A DNA stretch of 8,713 nucleotides from a plasmid: the sequence record NZ_CP102863.1, one strand, 5' to 3'. Below the pieces are notes generated by a model. It searched no databases. It had not been told where the DNA came from and was given only the letters and a program-made list of their open reading frames with translations. The translations under genes and the position numbers were made by a program. How positions within the stretch are numbered: the stretch's first letter is position 1; each line of letters starts with the position of its first letter. Positions 1 to 8,713 of this stretch are shown piece by piece.

Positions 1-48
1 ACTGATTTCTGTAAGTCAACTGTCCCTAAGGAATATGGCCTGTCGTCA

Positions 49-122
49 AATGTTGAATTTCCTTCTAAAATTCAACATTGCCTATTTTGCTAATGTTGGA
101 TTTCGCGTCAATATTCAACATT
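49..122. promoter_or_regulatory. Cluster of four 12-bp sites forming two palindromic operator-like pairs: AATGTTGAATTT at 49-60, its inverse AAATTCAACATT at 68-79, variant AATGTTGGATTT at 92-103, and inverse variant ATATTCAACATT at 111-122
   Basis: Read directly: the 49-60/68-79 arms are perfect reverse complements separated by CCTTCT. The second pair is a degenerate copy about 43 bp downstream. No ORF is supported here. Confidence 0.55.
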
Positions 123-151
123 TTGACCCCAGCGTGCTATCACGACAAACC

Positions 152-194
152 AAACCGCACTGCGGTTTACCCCAATTTTGGGGTCAGTTTTGCC
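152..194. terminator. Two adjacent GC hairpins (aaaccg-CACTG-cggttt at 152-168; acccca-ATTT-tggggt at 169-184) followed by cagTTTTg. Terminator-like, possibly for a gene off the left edge
   Basis: Palindromes read by eye. The T-run is only 4 nt, so terminator function is uncertain. They could equally be protein-binding palindromes. Confidence 0.35.
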
Positions 195-446
195 TTATGC
201 TCTTGCTTGATTTTAGGAGCGTTCCAAACGTCCTCAAAAAGTGGTCGATCCAGCCGAACCGATTTTTGAGATGGATCGGATCGCAACTCAATTTATTTTG
301 ATCTTTTACCTAGAGAAAAACGTGCACGTTTTGACCAGGGTAGTCGCAACTGTTTACCAAAAATCGTCCGGCAACGTGACGCAATTTTAACATCGTGTTG
401 GTTTGCCAGACGACCGTTCATCATCATTATTTAGGAGGTTTTTGAA

Positions 447-626
447 ATGACAAAGCAAGACGAAACTCACCGGGTCATGTTCACCTTGACCGATCAGGCG
501 ATTGCAAAATTGAATCAGCTGGTAGCGAAAAAGCAGCAGGAAGTGAATCAAAACCCGGACCTGGCTAAGTATCATGTTAAAGTGACCAAATCAAATATTG
601 TTGAGGATTGGTTATCGAAGCAGTAG
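447..626 (+). CDS. Small 59-aa protein (MTKQDETHRVMFTLTDQAIAKLNQLVAKKQQEVNQNPDLAKYHVKVTKSNIVEDWLSKQ). Ribbon-helix-helix (CopG/antitoxin-like) DNA-binding protein candidate
   Basis: AGGAGG at 434-439 sits 7 nt upstream of ATG 447. The ORF is just under the 60-aa cutoff, so it is missing from the ORF track. A strong terminator follows directly. The N-terminal pattern of beta-strand residues (RVMFTL) followed by a helix resembles RHH folds; this is inference. Confidence 0.55.
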   Translation: MTKQDETHRVMFTLTDQAIAKLNQLVAKKQQEVNQNPDLAKYHVKVTKSNIVEDWLSKQ

Positions 627-699
627 CTTTTAAAAAGCGCTAAAGGGGCCATTTTAACGGCTCTGGGTCTGACGGGTATAATTAATGCTCTCTACAACT

Positions 700-745
700 A
701 AAACGGCTTAGAACGCAAATATAAGCGTTCTAAGCCGTTTTTATT
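700..745. terminator. Rho-independent terminator with a 16-bp perfect stem (aaacggcttagaacgc / gcgttctaagccgttt), an 8-nt loop and TTTTTATT tail. Bidirectional
   Basis: Perfect inverted repeat read directly. The A-run upstream and T-run downstream allow termination in either direction. Confidence 0.8.
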
Positions 746-846
746 AGCCTATGTTCATGGCACAAATGAAAAGCGTTAGTGATTGATCAAATTTAGGCAA
801 CGTGCTTTTGTTGGTGAATGGCGATAGCCCCACCGAAGCTTCAGCT

Positions 847-950
847 GAGGTTCTTCTGAGCCACGCAAGCGAAGCGCGCTAGGGCAAGCCGAAGGCGCGC
901 AGGCGAAGCCGGAGTTAATGTGGCGAAGCCACACCTTTTTAGGGAGCGAA
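847..950 (+). repeat. GC-rich (~65% GC) structured element, copy A. Near-identical to 7881-7974 in the same orientation. Contains GCGAAGC four times and hairpin GTGGC-GAA-GCCAC
   Basis: Direct comparison by eye of 856-948 with 7890-7972: about 85 bp with 3-4 differences. The GC content contrasts sharply with the AT-rich surroundings. The ORF-track ORFs over this region (776-994, 841-1170, 920-1153) are judged spurious. Confidence 0.75.
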
Positions 951-975
951 GCGACCAAGGGTTGATATGGGGTTT

Positions 976-992
976 GGGGAGAGGTTCTCCCC
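976..992. other. GC hairpin ggggaga-GGT-tctcccc, preceded by the GGGGTTTGGGG motif that also occurs at 7268-7280
   Basis: Read directly. Confidence 0.4.
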
Positions 993-1044
993 AAGGTCTT
1001 TTGTGGTTATTAACACGCAAAACACAAACACAAGCCTCGCGCGC

Positions 1045-1090
1045 ATTATATATACTTTTAAATACTTTTAAATACTTTAAGTACTTAGGG
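1045..1090. promoter_or_regulatory. AT-rich region with direct repeats ATACTTTTAA x2 plus TACTTTAAGTACTT, immediately upstream of the iterons. Putative DNA unwinding element of the origin
   Basis: Sequence composition and its position relative to the iterons and repA. The role follows from established knowledge of the architecture of theta-type replicons. Confidence 0.45.
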
Positions 1091-1128
1091 CGACAAGAAT
1101 GGCTCAACCACAAGTTTAAAATGGCCAA

Positions 1129-1230
1129 TAGGTCACCAAAAAGCACACGATAGGTCACCAAAAAGCACACGATAGGTCACCAAAAAGCACACGATAGGTC
1201 ACCAAAAAGCACACGATAGGTCACCAAAAA
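1129..1230 (+). repeat. Iterons: 4 complete plus 1 partial tandem copies of the 22-bp unit TAGGTCACCAAAAAGCACACGA (origin of replication)
   Basis: Exact tandem repeats at 1129-1150, 1151-1172, 1173-1194 and 1195-1216, with a partial copy at 1217-1230. They lie 60 bp upstream of a Rep_3-type rep gene. The 22-bp periodicity equals two helical turns. Confidence 0.9.
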
Positions 1231-1289
1231 TTCCGATTGTGTTGATCATTGTAACCTTTAAATGTAAAGTGTCTCTGAGGTGAAAATTT

Positions 1290-2069
1290 ATGGTTAGTGC
1301 TGGGAGAATTCTTTGGACAAGCGATCGGGATTTCAATAAAGATGAAATCAGGGATCAACGCTATTTTCTTGTTGCAGAACACAACGATTTAATCACTAAA
1401 GCAAGACACGATCTTAATGCCCGTGAATTAAAAATTATGGATTACGTCGTATCTAAAATAAAACCTAATGATGAGCATTTTAATTTGATTGATACCTCAA
1501 TGTATGAGTTAACGCATGTACTCGATCTTAAACGCAGTGGGCGAACATATTCACAACTTGCTCAAAATCTTGAGGATATGCGGGCAAAAAGCGTTAAAAT
1601 CTATAATCCCTCTGAGCGACGGCTAACCCTAACCGGTTGGTTTGAAGTAGTTGACATTTGGGAGAATGGACAAGTAAAGCTACGAATCAATAAACAATTT
1701 GCCCCTTTTCTTTTAAAACTTAAAGATAGTGGTCACTATACACAGTATTTTCTTGAAGATACTGTACGTCTAAAAAGCAAGTATGCAATTCTTCTGTATA
1801 AGCTTATGCGTGAAGTTGACAAGGATCACGGTCAATCAATTGGAATCCTTCAAGGAACGCCGGAAGAATATATGGCTTGGTTAGGTTCTCCTTCAAAATA
1901 TCAGTACAAATATCTTAAAAATAAGGTGCTTAATCCGGCCATTGAAGAAATCAACTGCAAAATCAATGATATGGAACTAGAACTGCTGCAGGCACGACGC
2001 GGCCGTAAGGTAGTACAGATTGAAATTCACAACAATTTCGCACGTAGAAAATCACTGCGATATCAGTAA
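1290..2069 (+). CDS. repA: Replication initiator protein, Rep_3 family (theta-type plasmid RepA/RepB), 259 aa
   Basis: GAGGTG RBS sits 8 nt upstream. The N-terminal segment NDLITKARHDLNARELKIMDYVVSKIKP fits the Rep_3 N-terminal consensus from memory. Iterons lie immediately upstream and a terminator immediately downstream. Confidence 0.88.
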   Translation: MVSAGRILWTSDRDFNKDEIRDQRYFLVAEHNDLITKARHDLNARELKIMDYVVSKIKPNDEHFNLIDTSMYELTHVLDLKRSGRTYSQLAQNLEDMRAKSVKIYNPSERRLTLTGWFEVVDIWENGQVKLRINKQFAPFLLKLKDSGHYTQYFLEDTVRLKSKYAILLYKLMREVDKDHGQSIGILQGTPEEYMAWLGSPSKYQYKYLKNKVLNPAIEEINCKINDMELELLQARRGRKVVQIEIHNNFARRKSLRYQ

Positions 2070-2589: not shown

Positions 2590-3129
2590 TCATTTATTAT
2601 TTCGCTCACCAAACAAGCGTTGCCAAAAAGTTGCAGGCTTATCAGCACTATTTTCAACCGCTGTTGGCACTCCTGAGGCCCGTGCATGGATTTGCTCGTC
2701 TTTTTCTTTGGAATCACTCTCACGCTCATTTTTCGGTTTTTCAAGCTGCTTGAGCTTTTGTGCGGTCATCAACTGAAGCTGTTGTGACTGATCGAGCAAC
2801 TTTTGCAATTTTTCTATTTGCTGGTCTTTGGCGGCAAACTGTTTGTCACGATCTGCTCTCAAATAAGCGATTTCGTCTTTCATAGTAGCAATAATGTCAA
2901 TATTATTTTTGCCGCTATTTGTCGACGTTTGTCGATCTTTTTGGTGGTTATTTGGTGGCAAAGTCTTTGCTACTTTATTACGTATAATCCTTTCTAAATC
3001 GGAGCTGATCAGATTTCGTCCCTGGCTATCTTTTTGTCGCTTATTTGCTGGTAGTCTTTGGTAGTGATACTGGATTGTCTGTTTGCTAACACCCAGCTCA
3101 TCCGCAAGCTCTTTGACTGTTTTGCTCAT
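2590..3129 (-). CDS. HTH DNA-binding protein with a long Q/K/E-rich coiled-coil, 179 aa. DUF536 / plasmid 'RepB'-like replication-associated protein of lactic-acid-bacterium plasmids
   Basis: AGGAAA RBS sits before ATG 3129 on the minus strand. The N-terminus MSKTVKELADELGVSKQTIQYHYQRL is a typical HTH. The centre is heptad-like (KLQKLLDQSQQLQLMTAQKLKQLEK). Gene order (convergent with and downstream of repA) matches lactococcal and lactobacillal theta replicons from memory. Confidence 0.75.
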   Translation of the reverse strand: MSKTVKELADELGVSKQTIQYHYQRLPANKRQKDSQGRNLISSDLERIIRNKVAKTLPPNNHQKDRQTSTNSGKNNIDIIATMKDEIAYLRADRDKQFAAKDQQIEKLQKLLDQSQQLQLMTAQKLKQLEKPKNERESDSKEKDEQIHARASGVPTAVENSADKPATFWQRLFGERNNK

Positions 3130-4027: not shown

Positions 4028-4269
4028 GGGGGGGAGTTTAAGAAAGGTTCTATACTTCCCTCCTAGAGCTTGATTTTGGGAATTTACTCTTGATTATCCT
4101 GATTTTTGCTAGATACCAAACAGACTCTAAGAAGTTGTTTGATGTCTTCAATGCAGTACTTTACGATTGGCTAATATGCTGATCAATGATTTCATTCATT
4201 AAGTCAGAGATATCTGTTTCTAAAGCAATAGATAATTTATACAGAGTTTCTAGGCTAGGCAGATTATTA

Positions 4270-4322
4270 GGTAGATTGTAAAATTAATCCGAACGCTGTT
4301 CGGATTAATTTTACAATCTACC
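4270..4322. promoter_or_regulatory. Perfect 53-bp palindrome: 25-bp arms GGTAGATTGTAAAATTAATCCGAAC / GTTCGGATTAATTTTACAATCTACC around a 3-nt centre GCT. It lies 64 bp upstream of the defence-like operon
   Basis: The reverse complement of 4270-4294 equals 4298-4322 exactly (checked base by base). There is no T-run after it, so it is not a canonical terminator. Confidence 0.7.
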
Positions 4323-4385
4323 ATATATAGAACAATTTGATCCATAGTATACTATTAAAGATATAAATTAACGAGGTGCTTAATT

Positions 4386-5402
4386 ATGAAACCATTGCAT
4401 AATGCGTCAGCAACTCAAGCCGGGTTCCATTTTCAGGACGTGGCTGCTATCTACTTTTTTATTTCAGCTATCCAGGACTTAGACAAAGTAACACCTGAAG
4501 GTGAGGAGGATTTTGTTCTTTCGTTTAAAGATGGGAGCAAATCATTTTATCAGGCCAAAGAAGTTCAGAATGCATATAGCCCTATATCATCAAAGAGGTT
4601 CAAAGAAACATTAAGAACTTTACTGGATGACTTGAACAACAACGAAAAGGTGAAAGAAATAGGCCTAGTTACAAATTCATACTATCCTGTTTGCAATACG
4701 GATCTGACATCAACCTTCACTCCTACCTACATGAAAAAGTTATACGCTTCGTTATCACCCAAACTTCAAGAAACAATTCAAGAAAAGTTAGAGGACGTAG
4801 ATCCCAATACAGACATAACCAAATTAACAAATTTCTCTATTACTAAGCTTGCTTATGAAGGTGATGATCCGGATTCCAAACTTTATCAGCTAAACAAAAA
4901 AGCGGCTGAAGTTCTTGGAAGAGCCAAAATAAACGATTCTCATCATCGTCAAATAATTGATGAATGGAACTCAATTTTCAAAGAGGCTGATGAAGATCCT
5001 AAAAAAGCAATCAGCACAAGAGAATTCACGGCTCATACCGAGGCTATCGTTCTTGATTATTTTAATTTTAATGAATTTTTCAATTTATTTAGAATTAACC
5101 CATCAAATCAAACGTACATACAGGAGCAGTATTCCCAATATTTAAGAAGCCTTGCTCTTGATATACCCATTCACGGTCACATCACCATGGATTTTAACGA
5201 ATACCAGCAGAACCACTTGAAGGATCAATACACCAATTTACTGATAAACTTTGTTAATAAAGAGGCTATCAAAGAACGCGACGAGCTCGGATTAAAGAAG
5301 CGCTCTGAAGATCTGGACATCGCAAAGCTAATCATTTGGATAGTTGTTATAAACAACACTATTCTCAAACATATTGAGGAGGCGTTTGGCCTTGAAGATT
5401 AA
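4386..5402 (+). CDS. 338-aa protein of unknown function. Candidate effector (LmuA-like; possible degenerate PD-(D/E)xK-like N-terminal region: EGEEDFVLSFKDGSKSFYQAKE)
   Basis: GAGGTG RBS sits 9 nt upstream of ATG 4386. It overlaps the downstream ATPase gene (translational coupling). The product assignment is inference from gene context and acidic/lysine motifs, not a recognised match. Confidence 0.8.
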   Translation: MKPLHNASATQAGFHFQDVAAIYFFISAIQDLDKVTPEGEEDFVLSFKDGSKSFYQAKEVQNAYSPISSKRFKETLRTLLDDLNNNEKVKEIGLVTNSYYPVCNTDLTSTFTPTYMKKLYASLSPKLQETIQEKLEDVDPNTDITKLTNFSITKLAYEGDDPDSKLYQLNKKAAEVLGRAKINDSHHRQIIDEWNSIFKEADEDPKKAISTREFTAHTEAIVLDYFNFNEFFNLFRINPSNQTYIQEQYSQYLRSLALDIPIHGHITMDFNEYQQNHLKDQYTNLLINFVNKEAIKERDELGLKKRSEDLDIAKLIIWIVVINNTILKHIEEAFGLED

Positions 5403-6825
5403 TTCAATTTCTATAAACGGGAAGAAATTTCAATTTTCGAAACAATCAACGCTAATCTACAGTACAGTGAACGGAACCGGAAAAACCACTCTATTGCGAC
5501 TTTTGCTTTATGGACTGGGGTATCCAATTCCAGCGACAAAGGGGATCGATTTTTCTTCACTAAGTATTAAAGTTTCACTTACCAAAGATAACGGAGAGCA
5601 ATTAACTTTGGACCGGTCAGATAAAATAATTACAATATCTCAAAATAGCACATCAAGCACAGAATTCCATGTCATAGAAAATGCTCTCGAAATCCAATCA
5701 ATCATCTTTGATATTACAGATCCAAAAATCCTTGAAAATCTTCTTGGCCTATATTATTTTGATCAGGAAAAGGGATGGACTTTGCTTAATCGTGGAATTG
5801 TTATTGGCAGTATTAGATTCAAGATTGAATCTTTTGTTGAGGGCTTGAGTTCAAGGGAATTATTCAATCTTGATACTTCTATAGAAGATCTGACTGATCA
5901 AAAAAGAGAATATAGGCAATTACGCAGGATCTTATCAATTAAGGATAAATCCGCTTCAAATTCACAAAGTATAAATTGGTCTCCTATCGATCAGATCAAT
6001 AATAAGCTTAGATCACTTGAAACAGAAATCAGAAGATATAAATCAGTGGAAGCTCAATACAGATCGATTAACTTGAATAACGAAAACCTATTTAAGTTTA
6101 TTGAAGGCTTAAACCTAAAACTAAGAACATCAGACGGTGTCATTCCCATTAAAAGAAAAAACATTGTTGAACGTAACGTCAATCGCAATCTCTTAAATGC
6201 ACAGATCACCCGACAGAAACGTAAAATTTTACAATTAAGTGAAGAGAGAGAACGTCTCCAAAAAGAACTCAGCCAAAGCTTATTAGGCATCAGTGTAGAT
6301 TCACAATTGAAAAGGTTCAATATAGCGATATCTAGTTTAGACATTACAACAGAAGATCTAGACAAAATTGATAAACAATACGTTGATAAAATTAAAAAGC
6401 TCAAGCAAAAGCGAATTAAAATATTAAACAATAGCCAAATAGCGGAAAATCTTTATGAAAGAATCTTAAAGTTTTGTAATCACCTTAATGTGGGTAAGTC
6501 CATTGATCCAGAGAGTTCATTTCTTTGGACTTCTAACTTAAGACGCTTTAGTGGCGCACAACTTCACTTGATAGTATTCGCTTATCGAATGGCATTACTT
6601 CAGGAAGTACAAGAACATTTTAGCGTTACAATACCAATCATTCTGGATTCACCTATGACAGGTGAGTTAGATAAAGAGAATGCTTCTCTAATGTTCTCAT
6701 TGATTCACAAATACTTTCCTAAAAACCAGATCATTGTAGCATCCATCTTTAGGTTGCCATTAAATGACGATGATTTAATGCCTTTAAATACAATTACGCT
6801 AACGAAGGGGAGTATAGTTTCCTAG
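5392..6825 (+). CDS. SMC/Rad50-like ABC ATPase with a coiled-coil insert (LmuB-like), about 477 aa from TTG 5392. The ORF track starts at TTG 5374 and gives 483 aa
   Basis: Walker A VNGTGKTT (nt ~5467-5490). A charged heptad-rich middle region follows (residues ~170-370). The ABC-signature-like FSGAQ lies at nt 6547-6561. Walker B IILDSP lies at nt ~6640-6657, followed by a D-loop-like M. The N-terminus (M)KINSISINGKKF...LLLYGLG resembles LmuB/DUF3732-type heads from memory. GAGGAGG at 5376-5382 sits 9 nt before the in-frame TTG 5392. Confidence 0.88.
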   Translation: MKINSISINGKKFQFSKQSTLIYSTVNGTGKTTLLRLLLYGLGYPIPATKGIDFSSLSIKVSLTKDNGEQLTLDRSDKIITISQNSTSSTEFHVIENALEIQSIIFDITDPKILENLLGLYYFDQEKGWTLLNRGIVIGSIRFKIESFVEGLSSRELFNLDTSIEDLTDQKREYRQLRRILSIKDKSASNSQSINWSPIDQINNKLRSLETEIRRYKSVEAQYRSINLNNENLFKFIEGLNLKLRTSDGVIPIKRKNIVERNVNRNLLNAQITRQKRKILQLSEERERLQKELSQSLLGISVDSQLKRFNIAISSLDITTEDLDKIDKQYVDKIKKLKQKRIKILNNSQIAENLYERILKFCNHLNVGKSIDPESSFLWTSNLRRFSGAQLHLIVFAYRMALLQEVQEHFSVTIPIILDSPMTGELDKENASLMFSLIHKYFPKNQIIVASIFRLPLNDDDLMPLNTITLTKGSIVS

Positions 6826-6874
6826 TTTCCTATGAAAAAACGTCTATAGCAGTGTTAAGGAGAGAGCTGATTTT

Positions 6875-7264
6875 TTGATAAAACGTGAGCCAAATCGTAA
6901 AAGACCGATTCGCAAAACCGCACGATTCACCGCGACAGAACTGGCGGAAATCAAGCGTCAACAGTTTGAAGCTGGTTATAACCAATTTAGCGCTTTTGCT
7001 CGCTACCGTTTGTTTAATAGCCCGATTTTCGATGTCAGTTTGATTGATGGCAACGCCATGCTTCCGCGTATTCGTAGGGTTGGCGACCAGCTAAATCAGA
7101 TTACACACGCCGTCAATTTGACTGGCACGGTCAGTAAGGAGCAAGTTGTGACCGTCAAGGAACTAGTTGGGCAGTTGTCAAAAGTACTCAAGGAGCATCT
7201 TTTACAGGACGCTGAATTTGAAGCATCACTCGCACGATCGCTCAACCCGTCTAACAAAAAATAA
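6875..7264 (+). CDS. mobC: Plasmid mobilisation relaxosome accessory protein MobC family, 129 aa, TTG start
   Basis: AGGAGA RBS upstream. The core RFTATELAEIKRQQFEAGYNQFSAFARYRLFN...IRRVGDQLNQITHAVNLTG matches the MobC-family pattern (R.T.EE...AGLS.S.Y.R...LNQIA+..N) from memory. No relaxase gene follows. Confidence 0.75.
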   Translation: MIKREPNRKRPIRKTARFTATELAEIKRQQFEAGYNQFSAFARYRLFNSPIFDVSLIDGNAMLPRIRRVGDQLNQITHAVNLTGTVSKEQVVTVKELVGQLSKVLKEHLLQDAEFEASLARSLNPSNKK

Positions 7265-7273
7265 CCTAGGGGT

Positions 7274-7337
7274 TTGGGGGCAGCGCCCCCAAGATACAAA
7301 AGGGGAGTAGGCTGATCAGCCTACTCCCCTTTTTTTG
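7274..7337. terminator. Two hairpins after mobC: TTGGGGGCAGCGCCCCCAA (7274-7292) and a 15-bp perfect stem aggggagtaggctga/tcagcctactcccct (7301-7330) with TTTTTTT. Strong bidirectional intrinsic terminator
   Basis: Perfect palindromes read directly, with an A-run before and a T-run after. Confidence 0.85.
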
Positions 7338-7338
7338 A

Positions 7339-7379
7339 GCAAGTGTGCACCCACTTGCAAATCTCGCGACAGTAGAAAA
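7339..7379. repeat. Left 41-bp inverted repeat GCAAGTGTGCACCCACTTGCAAATCTCGCGACAGTAGAAAA (partner at 8192-8232)
   Basis: The reverse complement of 8192-8232 matches with 2-3 mismatches. Each copy contains an internal hairpin (caagtg...cacttg). Confidence 0.7.
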
Positions 7380-7513
7380 AGGCCTCGGCTTCCTCATCTG
7401 GGTTAGTCAGGTCCTTGTTATGGTTGCTTTCAGCGTTCATAAAACTTTTATAGCAGCCTTTAACGCCGATTAAGCACCAAATTCAGGCCCGATTTTCATA
7501 AAAACCTTCGGTC

Positions 7514-7765
7514 TTGGCCATCGTGGTACTATATTTGATAAGCGTTCATAAAAGCGAGGTCATAGGATTATTGAAAACCAAGTTTAAAAATCTGTTTGTC
7601 CGGCAAATAGCTATTAAAAGCCCCGGAAGGCCGAAGTTATCTCAAAATATAACGGCTGAAATCAAAAGCCTGGCTCAGGCTCACCCTAAGTGGTCCCTGC
7701 AGACCCTGGCCCGTGCTGTTGGTGTTAGTAAAACCAGCGTCTATAACGTTTTAAATAAAAGGTGA
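7514..7765 (+). pseudogene. 83-aa fragment resembling the N-terminal HTH of an IS transposase (GRPKLSQNITAEIKSLAQAHPKWSLQTLARAVGVSKTSVYNVLNKR; IS630/IS481/IS30-like HTH pattern). No catalytic domain follows
   Basis: Motif GRPK...S...LA...GVS..TVY.VL. The ORF stops at 7765 and no downstream frame continues. The start at ATG 7514 is doubtful. Confidence 0.45.
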
Positions 7766-7880
7766 TGAATTAATTTTATACCTGTTTGCTCTAAAAGACG
7801 CTTAAAGCGCAAATATGGACGCCTGAGAAGCTCTGACGGTCCTGAGTGAGCTTTTGCGAACGCTCTCCAAGGCCGTGGTC

Positions 7881-7974
7881 GAGGTTTTCCTGAGCCACGC
7901 AAGCGAAGCGCGCTAGGGCAAGCCTAAGGCGCGCAGGCGGAGCCGGAGTTAAATGTGGCGAAGCCACACCTTTT
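7881..7974 (+). repeat. GC-rich structured element copy B, a direct repeat of 847-950
   Basis: About 85 bp near-identical core (7890-7972 vs 856-948), same orientation. Confidence 0.75.
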
Positions 7975-8191
7975 ATGATCGTGACCGAATAGGTGATCGG
8001 CCGTGAACCTGTTGGGAATTAGAGGGGGGGAGCAAGGCGTGCTCAAACAACTCAGAAACAATTGGCTCCTAAGCAAATAAGTTGCTCGCACCATGTTTCA
8101 TAAAATTGTTATGTTTTAGCGCACGACTTTGCAGTCGCAACCTAAACAAAAAGCAAGATCAGCAATTCTCCGATTTTGCTTTTTTTGACGA

Positions 8192-8232
8192 TTTTCTACT
8201 GTCGCGAGATTTGCAAGTGGACGTCCACTTGC
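8192..8232. repeat. Right 41-bp inverted repeat TTTTCTACTGTCGCGAGATTTGCAAGTGGACGTCCACTTGC. Contains the perfect 18-bp palindrome CAAGTGGACGTCCACTTG
   Basis: Reverse complement of 7339-7379 with 2-3 mismatches. Confidence 0.7.
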
Positions 8233-8275
8233 GATGAATTGACAGAATCTCAGCTGCGCTGATCGTCAATTTTGT

Positions 8276-8328
8276 TTGGGGCACGCCCCCCAATCCCCCT
8301 GTTATTTTTAAGAGGGGCGAGTCGCCCC
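8276..8328. other. Hairpin module TTGGGGGCACGCCCCCCAA (8276-8294) plus aggggcgAGTcgcccct (8312-8328). Similar to the hairpin pair at 7274-7330 on the other side of the IR-bounded element
   Basis: Read directly. TTGGGGGCA(S)CGCCCCCAA occurs on both flanks. Confidence 0.4.
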
Positions 8329-8685
8329 TTCAAAGCCAAAATTCAAACAGTACCTGACGACATCTTTTCAATGACCTTTGCATGATGTTACACATGGTGT
8401 TGACATATTGTTGCATTTGGAGTTTCGTTCAAGTTGAACATCATGTAATATATGAGTTGCATTCGAGGAACATCTAAGTTGCTACTTGTGCAACTTTAAA
8501 GCTACAGTTAATTCAATTTTTTTTGCGTTATAAGCACCTCAATAGTTTCTGTTAAAGCAACACGTACGCTTCAATTGGAGTAACTTGCTATACGCATCTC
8601 ATGTTGCAAACAAGCCACTATAGAGTTGTGTACGCTGCAACGCCAAAAACGTGCTCATTCGATCGGACAAGTGCCATTTTGACTA

Positions 8686-8698
8686 AATGTTGAATATT
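8686..8698. promoter_or_regulatory. Fifth copy of the 12-bp operator-like motif (AATGTTGAATATT, reverse complement of AATATTCAACATT at 111-123), at the extreme right end
   Basis: Exact reverse-complement match to the site at 111-123. It would lie about 75 bp from the 49-122 cluster if the window were circular. Confidence 0.4.
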
Positions 8699-8713
8699 GC
8701 AAAAAAATCCAAC

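Follow-up and report, generated by a model that had tools for sequence, protein, structure and literature searches.

An array of GNA-loop mini-hairpins beside Rep_3 origins of Lacticaseibacillus plasmids: a candidate accessory single-strand initiation signal

INTRODUCTION

Signals for the start of DNA synthesis on a single strand have been described in phages, in theta plasmids and in rolling-circle plasmids, and we compare with them here a GC-rich array of short hairpins that occurs twice in the plasmid sequence NZ_CP102863.1. The whole stretch analysed, called the window below, is the complete circle of 8713 bp of a Rep_3 (iteron) theta plasmid of the Lacticaseibacillus type; the copy of the element beside its replication origin is called copy A and the other copy B. 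Among the closest described systems are the G4-type single-strand initiation (ssi) signals: in theta plasmids ssiA of F and the G-site of R1/R100, and in phages the complementary-strand origins of G4, St-1 and alpha3. Like the element, they consist of stable hairpins with GCGNAGC or GCGNNAGC, lie a few hundred nucleotides (nt) from a Rep-dependent origin on the strand that would template synthesis away from it, and are accessory; the position of the R1 G-site matches the geometry of the element. They are active only as single-stranded DNA, and we suppose the same for the element. The element differs from them in having no detectable sequence homology, in its Gram-positive host, in being composed of five to seven very short hairpins instead of three longer ones, and in that its priming is presumed.

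The hairpins concerned belong to a class of extraordinarily stable DNA mini-hairpins reviewed by Kimoto and Hirao (PMC13037366). Only GNA triloops confer this stability, with melting temperatures (Tm) of 70-76°C, and the RNA form is much weaker, with a Tm of 39°C for r(GCGAAAGC); the GNA mini-hairpin also binds single-stranded DNA-binding protein (SSB) poorly (PMC13037366). The motif is known at the primase sites of phages G4, St-1 and alpha3, at the single-strand promoters of N4 and in RSF1010 ssiA, which contains a CCGAAGG mini-hairpin (PMC13037366). RSF1010 oriV resembles the present locus in that it combines iterons, an AT-rich region and adjacent single-strand initiation hairpins. Its signals ssiA and ssiB, however, are essential and are read by the plasmid primase RepB′, whereas here there is no plasmid-borne primase and the element can be dispensed with.

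Rolling-circle plasmids provide a second comparison. In pLAB1000, pSD11, pPS1 and pF8801, a region that we take to be the single-strand origin (sso) stands in the same order as the element here (structured element, origin, rep), with the same strand read towards rep; like the element, it is non-coding with extensive intrastrand pairing, rich in hairpins, fixed in orientation to origin and rep, dispensable and host-restricted. A related region holds the equivalent site in theta plasmids of the pCIS4 type, which share one block with the element. The element differs in that its replicon is of the theta type and in lacking a TAGCGT/A (CS-6-like) motif, as read against the consensus. In RK2 oriV, a poorly understood GC-rich tract lies beside AT-rich 13-mers, and the element is likewise GC-rich DNA placed next to the AT-rich, presumed unwinding region at an origin with iterons; in contrast to the RK2 tract, the element is much longer, has covarying hairpins and is dispensable. 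Single-strand origins are also found outside rolling-circle replicons and linked to modules for the origin of transfer (oriT), e.g. ICEBs1 sso1 (PMC4595007).

Judged by its sequence, the element fits no characterised sso or ssi family. Most likely it is a previously undescribed form of an element whose kind is known, and our tentative reading is that it may act as an accessory, host-recognised initiation signal of the ssi or sso kind at Rep_3 origins.

RESULTS

Two copies of one element and a conserved module at the origin

An initial annotation of the window, made from the letters alone, had described two direct copies of a GC-rich repeat containing GCGAAGC motifs. This is borne out: 847-939 and 7881-7974 lie on the same strand and align over 94 positions with 94.7% identity and a single 1-nt indel. 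The copies score 138 and 141.5 bits (E ~1e-35) with a covariance model made from relatives, and the rest of the window scores at most 11 bits. Their GC content, put at 65%, measures 61% against a background of 38.6%. GCGAAGC does occur four times in copy A (869, 903, 923 and 946), the fourth falling outside the shared part, but copy B has just two exact matches (7903 and 7958), and one of its sites is the variant GCGGAGC (7937). GCGNAGC, a motif of G4-type ssi signals, occurs ten times in the window against 2.6 expected, a number reached in none of 200 shuffles; seven of these sites belong to copies A and B, each of them on the + strand. The initial annotation is also right in naming the GCGCGC palindromes and the hairpin GTGGC-GAA-GCCAC, and its statement that the copies are non-coding holds as well, the reading frame being broken by 1-nt indels in close relatives (alignment columns 32 and 96) and a 21-nt deletion being found in pMA3.

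The repeat had been thought to continue downstream in degenerate form, as part of a longer ancestral unit. The similarity between 940-1000 and 7975-8045 proved to be of the order found by chance (443 of 1000 shuffles score as high), and the upstream flanks of the two copies, A5 and B5, are likewise no more similar than shuffles. A longer unit does exist, and it begins further 5′ than was claimed, with a covarying hairpin (833-850 in A, 7867-7884 in B) that differs in sequence between the copies and has the same fold. What copy B shares with copy A runs only from the GAGG of this hairpin, H0, through the T-run after H4 (Table 1); copy B has other flanks and no rep gene downstream. The full form is the origin-proximal module of copy A, which is conserved from ~812 to CCCCAAGGTCT (997) in 31 distinct relatives. 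Past CCCCAAGGTCT, each replicon type diverges into its own CGCGCGC motif, AT-rich region and iterons, the motif and the AT-rich DNA following directly 3′ of the module in several replicon types.

The initial annotation had proposed a BLAST search for copies elsewhere, and this returned ~74 plasmid records, 67 of them from Lacticaseibacillus. The element is annotated in none of the records examined, and no description of it was found in the papers on pRC18, pMN1 and pRCEID7.6 or in a review of plasmids of lactic acid bacteria (LAB). Pattern scans with block 4 (one genome scan and one metagenome scan) added 35 loci. The scan of one genome per species gave a single locus, on a Carnobacterium contig from a metagenome-assembled genome, and the viral contigs scanned held no copy; it is therefore not a repeat dispersed over chromosomes, nor is it carried by phages. 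The Carnobacterium contig (CAJPNA010000028.1) has the window-type module in full, then iterons of another set and a Rep_3 gene, and its genus assignment may be a binning error.

Compensatory changes preserve the hairpins

The 19 proposed pairs were scored in 32 distinct sequences. Overall, 98.7% of cells are paired and six pairs have changed on both sides; these values were equalled in none of 500 column shuffles, and partners slid by 1-3 columns pair at 15-42%. The richest record is that of H0, in which all four inner pairs have changed on both sides with 97.9% of cells paired, giving five stem types (AGCT/AGCT, GGCC/GGCC, GCCC/GGGC, GCTC/GAGC and GGCT/AGCC) with an unchanged fold. One compensatory change each is seen in H2 (G-C to A-T in relative L005, with a first loop base that varies freely) and in H3 (C-G to A-T in relative L010, giving GGA-GGA-TCC), and the alternative hairpin H1′ has one covarying pair (U-A / C-G / U-G) and 95.6% of cells paired. 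The loop of H4 is GNA in 29 of the 32 sequences, and GNA triloops also dominate in H1, H3 and H5. Compensatory change keeps the hairpins. Since the sequence varies and complementarity is kept, it is a folded single strand that appears to be selected, rather than a sequence-specific duplex site.

A function in the duplex was nevertheless considered, either as a GC-rich clamp that limits melting of the AT-rich DNA or as a binding platform for a host or plasmid protein. In all replicon types the AT-rich unwinding region is immediately bordered by a block of 59-61% GC, and a long invariant stretch at ~860-887 (CCACGCAAGCGAAGCGCGCTAGGGCAA) would suit sequence-specific binding. Against this stand the stems themselves, which change on both sides with complementarity kept, unlike a site recognised by its duplex sequence. 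Moreover, matches resembling the DnaA box (TTATCCACA) are not enriched in the window (34 against 29.4 expected), no DnaA box with fewer than two mismatches lies near the origin, the only 2-mismatch match being inside H4, copy B adjoins no origin, and the element is dispensable for replication (see below). We consider a duplex function quite improbable.

The type of loop bears on which nucleic acid folds and on which strand. Because GNA loops are stable in DNA, and because the loops of the - strand would be TNC, DNA is favoured over RNA and the + strand over the - strand. The compensatory changes would equally fit an RNA, and the element could act at the level of transcription, as a structured non-coding RNA or through H4 and H6 as terminators that insulate the origin from transcription of the upstream backbone. 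In copy A, H4 and H6, which lie right before the origin, are indeed flagged as terminator-like on the + strand, and H4 of copy B is flagged too, the T-run beginning at least 2 nt past the stem; the module of pCIS4-type plasmids likewise ends in two hairpins with T-runs, and the RNA fold of 812-1000 has a z-score of -2.5, with none of 200 shuffles as stable. However, H0-H3 have no T-runs, copy B has no H6 and only TTTT after H4, and upstream transcription is already halted at 697-744. No promoter-like site lies between that terminator and the element or upstream of copy B, the 5′ flanks of the two copies being unrelated, and neither 812-1000 nor 7840-8050 matches a family in Rfam 15 with E up to 1. 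The GNA triloop is, in addition, a stable motif specific to DNA, the RNA version melting near 39°C (PMC13037366). These observations make the small RNA proposed among the options of the initial annotation unlikely, and we regard a transcription-level role for the element as a whole as unlikely too. H4 and H6 do resemble weak terminators, and the 3′ part of the module may have an insulating role.

The module keeps its place beside different replicons and is dispensable

In every locus with an A-type 3′ end whose sequence extends far enough, the start of a Rep_3 gene lies 176-535 nt downstream, and the gene is on the same strand. These loci span four Rep clusters of <50% identity, all with Rep3_N plus Rep3_C and with different iterons; given this fixed placement, the module does not track Rep or iteron specificity. 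Nor are other plasmid proteins needed, since the element is retained in pRCEID3.2 (3.25 kb), which has no convincing protein gene beyond rep and that of a small toxin. A binding site or centromere for RepB (DUF536) was also considered and rejected, as pRCEID3.2 has the element and no repB.

The iteron of the window has been reported in pRCEID7.6 (PMC4766160). A vector with only nt 135-1076 of that plasmid replicates in plasmid-free L. casei at ~12 copies; 75% of cells still had it after 100 generations and 16% after 200 (PMC4766160). By alignment, this fragment corresponds to 1128-2069 of the window, i.e. iterons, promoter and rep. As the vector replicates without the element, the element is accessory, as sso, ssi and G-sites are. 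In natural pRCEID7.6 (6692-7546), an IS5-family insertion sequence (IS) at TTAG just after H4 splits H0-H4 from H5-H6 and the origin, so a split module is tolerated.

These two observations, dispensability and the tolerated insertion, would also be expected of a functionless passenger, a foreign GC-rich relic that hitch-hikes with a successful replicon backbone, and with most copies >90% identical part of the conservation reflects recent common descent. Yet the element keeps the same place and orientation beside four Rep clusters with unrelated iterons, is retained in a plasmid of 3.25 kb and shows compensatory changes, and in other hosts the site is occupied by a different structured module and is not empty. 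That the element is such a relic is highly improbable.

A rolling-circle-related module occupies the same site in other genera

In ~330 plasmids, a structured region that we call the pCIS4 type occupies the same position upstream of AT-rich repeats and iterons. Its hosts are Lactiplantibacillus, Pediococcus, Latilactobacillus and related genera, against 67 of 74 records from Lacticaseibacillus for the window type, a partition that is expected for a host-recognised signal. The RepA of pCIS4 is 69% identical to that of pRCEID3.2, CCTCTTTTA repeats are common to both, and pRCEID3.2, a plasmid of L. casei, carries the window-type module. As the RepA proteins are alike and the modules different, one replicon type can carry either module, sorted by host genus.

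The two types share only a 43-nt block (GAGTTAATG, H4 and the T-run), with a local score of 54 against 16.8 ± 2.3 for shuffles. After this block, pCIS4 continues in the same order as the window with a GCGNAGC motif (GCGTAGC, at a position collinear with H5) and then a hairpin with a T-run. The 5′ part of the window module, aligned locally with pCIS4 and pSD11, does not score above shuffles. The 5′ half of the pCIS4 module has homology (~70%, E 1e-16) with the sequence that directly precedes the CTTGATA nick site in small rolling-circle plasmids, among them pSD11, pPS1, pLAB1000 and pF8801 as well as many others of 1.7-3.6 kb. In those regions we find GCGAAAGC, GCGTTAGC and GCGTCAGC, which are the mini-hairpins of phages G4 and St-1. 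The window-type element is interchangeable, at its place beside the origin, with this rolling-circle-related module. The pCIS4 region itself (6540-6790 of its record) is a module shared by theta and rolling-circle plasmids and is unannotated; no mention of such a common module was found in searchable papers.

Copy B, the mobilisation segment and module exchange

The two copies had been described as lying ~7 kb apart and as bracketing the replication, defence and mobC modules. In related plasmids the two ends of the window join up (97% over 296 nt in L004), so that the plasmid is circular, and the copies, 7.03 kb apart one way, are only 1.68 kb apart the other way. The bracketing applies to the linearised window; the conserved order is copy B, 1.68-kb backbone, copy A, origin. 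This arrangement, with a copy B of the same type in the same flanks, recurs in six other plasmids or contigs (L002, L003, L004, L019, L022 and L039), and the backbone part 8031-8713 is conserved ~1.2 kb upstream of copy A in ~100 plasmid records. The B-type 5′ flank is always linked to mobC and an oriT-like repeat ~500 nt upstream, and the series of mobC, oriT-like repeat, ~500 nt and B5-type element is found again in L002, L003, L010, L019, L022 and L027. In L010 and L027, a single hybrid element, with a B-type 5′ flank and an A-type 3′ part, stands directly between the mobC/oriT-like module and the origin.

Such mosaic flanks around a constant core (A5-core-A3, B5-core-B3, the hybrid B5-core-A3 and further 5′ types) suggest another explanation, in which the core is a recombination junction where the mobC/oriT module, the 1.68-kb backbone and the replication module are exchanged. 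Exchange would be homologous or would use a host site-specific or multimer-resolution system, and the direct copies would be its footprint and could delete or exchange the intervening DNA. The constant tie of B5-type flanks to mobC and the oriT-like repeat and the recurrence of the layout from copy B to copy A agree with this. On the other hand, no recombinase is encoded in the window or in most carriers, no dif-like half-site, by comparison with the consensus, lies within the element, and the direct copies persist at the same spacing in several independent plasmids, which argues against an efficient resolution site. Any conserved stretch of 95 nt can serve as a homologous crossover, and mosaicism leaves the conservation of the hairpins unexplained. 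We therefore see a junction function as improbable, while the ssoA of rolling-circle plasmids contains the recombination site RSB and both roles can coexist.

The oriT-like repeats in question are 41-nt units at 7339-7379 and 8192-8232, which form an inverted pair with 90% complementarity, each with the hairpin GCAAGTG-N6-CACTTGC followed by AAATCTCGCGACAGTAGAAAA. An additional 25-nt inverted pair lies outside them (7257-7281 and 8285-8309). The initial annotation had named an oriT-like nicking region among the possible roles of the element; the 41-nt units lie elsewhere and bear no resemblance to it, and the element is also found in plasmids without mob genes, so that an oriT function is not supported. 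No relaxase gene lies in the window, and for mobilisation the enzyme would have to be supplied in trans.

The setting of copy B recalls ICEBs1 sso1 and the ssoU and ssoA of pMV158, which go with an oriT/mob module: copy B lies ~500 nt from the oriT-like repeat that neighbours mobC, and the segment flanked by the two copies contains an oriT-like site. It differs in the missing relaxase gene, in that the polarity of the oriT-like units is deduced, and in that the backbone site would transfer the strand opposite the GNA-loop strand in carriers of copy A only, which are the majority.

Other features of the plasmid

The coordinates of the element and of the surrounding features are collected in Table 1. 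The two genes of the defence candidate (4386-5402 and 5374-6825, + strand) match the PADLOC candidate PDC-M46 (A: E 4.8e-66; B: E 4.5e-126); a Cap4-type nuclease domain is present in protein A, and protein B is an SMC/AAA protein related to LmuB of Lamassu. Just upstream of them, a long near-perfect hairpin with a 30-bp stem lies at 4265-4327. The comparable long near-perfect hairpin at 697-744 is a bidirectional terminator-like stem 3′ of a small open reading frame (ORF; 447-626). A palindromic box of ~30 nt (AATGTTGAAT...ATTCAACATT) is present three times (8685-8713, 49-79 and 92-122) with a spacing of ~43 nt; the boxes span the circular junction, overlap the start of an 88-aa ORF (35-301) and resemble an operator array. 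Among the relatives, L005 (NZ_CP032639.1, 13,282 bp) consists of two exact tandem units of a 6,641-bp plasmid, every gene recurring 6,641 bp further on, and is probably an assembly artefact or a true dimer.

Table 1. Positions of the element, its hairpins and the surrounding plasmid features in the window
Feature	Position	Strand	Remarks
Copy A, full origin-proximal module	812-997	+	~185 nt, array of short GC-rich hairpins; GC 59%
H0	833-850	+	CC-GA-AGCT-tc-AGCT-GA-GG; tandem G.A mismatches between C-G pairs
H1′, alternative hairpin	849-862	+	GGTTC-ttct-GAGCC; overlaps 3′ end of H0, competes for G849 and G850
H1	869-875	+	Invariant GCGAAGC mini-hairpin; GAA loop in 32/32 distinct sequences, stem without variation
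H2	888-896	+	GCC-NAA-GGC; nested in GCGCGC...GCGCGC palindrome (874-900)
H3	902-910	+	GGC-GNA-GCC mini-hairpin; GNA loop in 23/32 sequences
Block 4	912-941	+	GAGTTAATG, H4 (TGTGGC-GAA-GCCACA, 919-933), CC, T-run; most widely conserved part
H5	946-952	+	GCGAAGC mini-hairpin, A-type 3′ part only; GNA loop in 22/29 scorable sequences
H6	973-995	+	10-pair hairpin TTTGGGGAGA-ggt-TCTCCCCAAG, then GTCTTTTG; terminator-like; conserved in all A-type copies
Presumed unwinding element of origin	1036-1100		CTCGCGCGC, then AT-rich repeats (AT-rich part 1045-1100)
Iterons, 22 bp	1106-1237	+	Four full and a partial fifth at 3′ end (1128-1237); degenerate 5′ copy 1106-1127
repA	1290-2069	+	Rep_3 initiator, 259 aa; Pfam Rep3_N (E 4.7e-35) and Rep3_C
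repB (DUF536)	2590-3129	-	
Two-gene defence candidate	4386-6825		
NikA/MobC-like gene	6875-7264		
OriT-like hairpin plus tail	7339-7379	+	75 nt after NikA/MobC-like ORF, ~500 nt upstream of copy B
Small helix-turn-helix ORF	7514-7765		
Copy B	7846-7974	+	Model match 7858-7974, 141.5 bits
Copy B hairpins			Own 5′ hairpin GAGC...GCTC; H0 7867-7884, H1 7903-7909, H2 7922-7930, H3 7936-7944, H4 7954-7968
B-specific 3′ tail	7975-8030	+	In place of H5 and H6 of copy A; found only on B-type cores
Backbone segment, first part	8031-8713		Of 1.68 kb, copy B to copy A across circular junction
Second oriT-like copy, inverted	8192-8232	-	In backbone, 220 nt downstream of copy B
Backbone segment, second part	1-811		Small ORFs and strong terminator at 697-744

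DISCUSSION

Taken as a whole, the interpretation offered in the initial annotation is partly supported. Action in a single-stranded state is supported by the compensatory changes, the dominance of GNA triloops and the fixed position and orientation beside the origin, and among the options then listed a single-strand origin or priming site fits best.

If the element is an accessory ssi- or sso-like signal, it could work as follows. RepA would open the AT-rich region at 1045-1100 and a host helicase would unwind leftwards, so that the + strand of the module, 50-230 nt away, would become single-stranded. This strand would fold into a row of very stable mini-hairpins with GNA loops that resist coating by SSB and expose short linkers between them, where a host enzyme, conceivably primase, a PriA-type primosome or RNA polymerase, would make a primer to be extended away from the iterons. 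The primase of Firmicutes prefers CTA and TTA; CTA (in the region of 880-881, GCGCTAGGG) and TTA (GAGTTAATG, CTTTTTAGG) do lie between the hairpins, such trinucleotides being common.

Copy B, attached to the mobC/oriT-like module, might do the same job on transferred single-stranded DNA; alternatively, it may merely mark the point at which a mobilisation cassette became joined to a replication cassette. In characterised oriTs the inverted repeat lies 5′ of nic. If this applies here, the unit at 7339-7379 would send the + strand to the recipient, with copy B ~500 nt into the leading region. The backbone unit at 8192-8232, of opposite polarity, would transfer the - strand in many plasmids with copy A only, so a purely conjugative role does not explain copy A.

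Several points weigh against the proposed initiation signal. The loop of H2 is mostly AAA and not GNA. Covariation is found mostly in one hairpin, H0, and mean column identity is 88%; the sequences are closely related, so independent covariation events are few. The folding of the module as DNA is unremarkable, with z-scores of -1.35 for the + strand and -2.04 for the - strand, and copy B scores -0.70. Counts of G.T against A.C appositions do not pick a strand in H0 (2 to 4) or H3 (2 to 3), and are asymmetric solely in the less certain H1′ (26 to 5). The minimal pRCEID7.6 vector lost much besides the element, so that its lower stability is not attributable to the element. As for the rolling-circle regions, we presume them to be sso from the organisation of the plasmids, a mapped sso not being confirmed in the literature. 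The covariance model of the core, which bears on homology to a characterised sso type, gives at most 7.3 bits (E above 1) on those of pSD11, pPS1, pLAB1000 and pF8801, and a weak match, mostly to block 4, on pCIS4 (15 bits, E 0.013). With no match of the core in the rolling-circle regions, the link to sso lies in position and architecture and does not extend to homology of the element as a whole. Finally, the single-stranded state, the acting strand, the enzyme and priming itself are all things that we infer.

A broader possibility, which we think rather unlikely, is that the element is a portable, host-specific priming cassette where the host primase or primosome enters, both at Rep_3 theta origins and on transferred strands, and which at the same time provides a standard junction for swaps of replication, mobilisation and cargo modules among plasmids of Lactobacillaceae. 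If so, rolling-circle and theta plasmids would share one pool of interchangeable single-strand origins, and the variant carried would help to set the host range of a plasmid.

If the element is an ssi signal, it would be a natural, multi-copy example of the GNA mini-hairpin under selection. It would also explain the lower stability of minimal L. casei shuttle vectors that consist of iterons plus rep, and adding the ~185-nt module suggests itself as an improvement of such vectors. Dedicated priming modules beside the origin have so far been documented mainly in enterobacterial plasmids (R1, F and RSF1010) and in rolling-circle plasmids; the iteron theta plasmids of LAB would then carry such modules too, in host-specific form.

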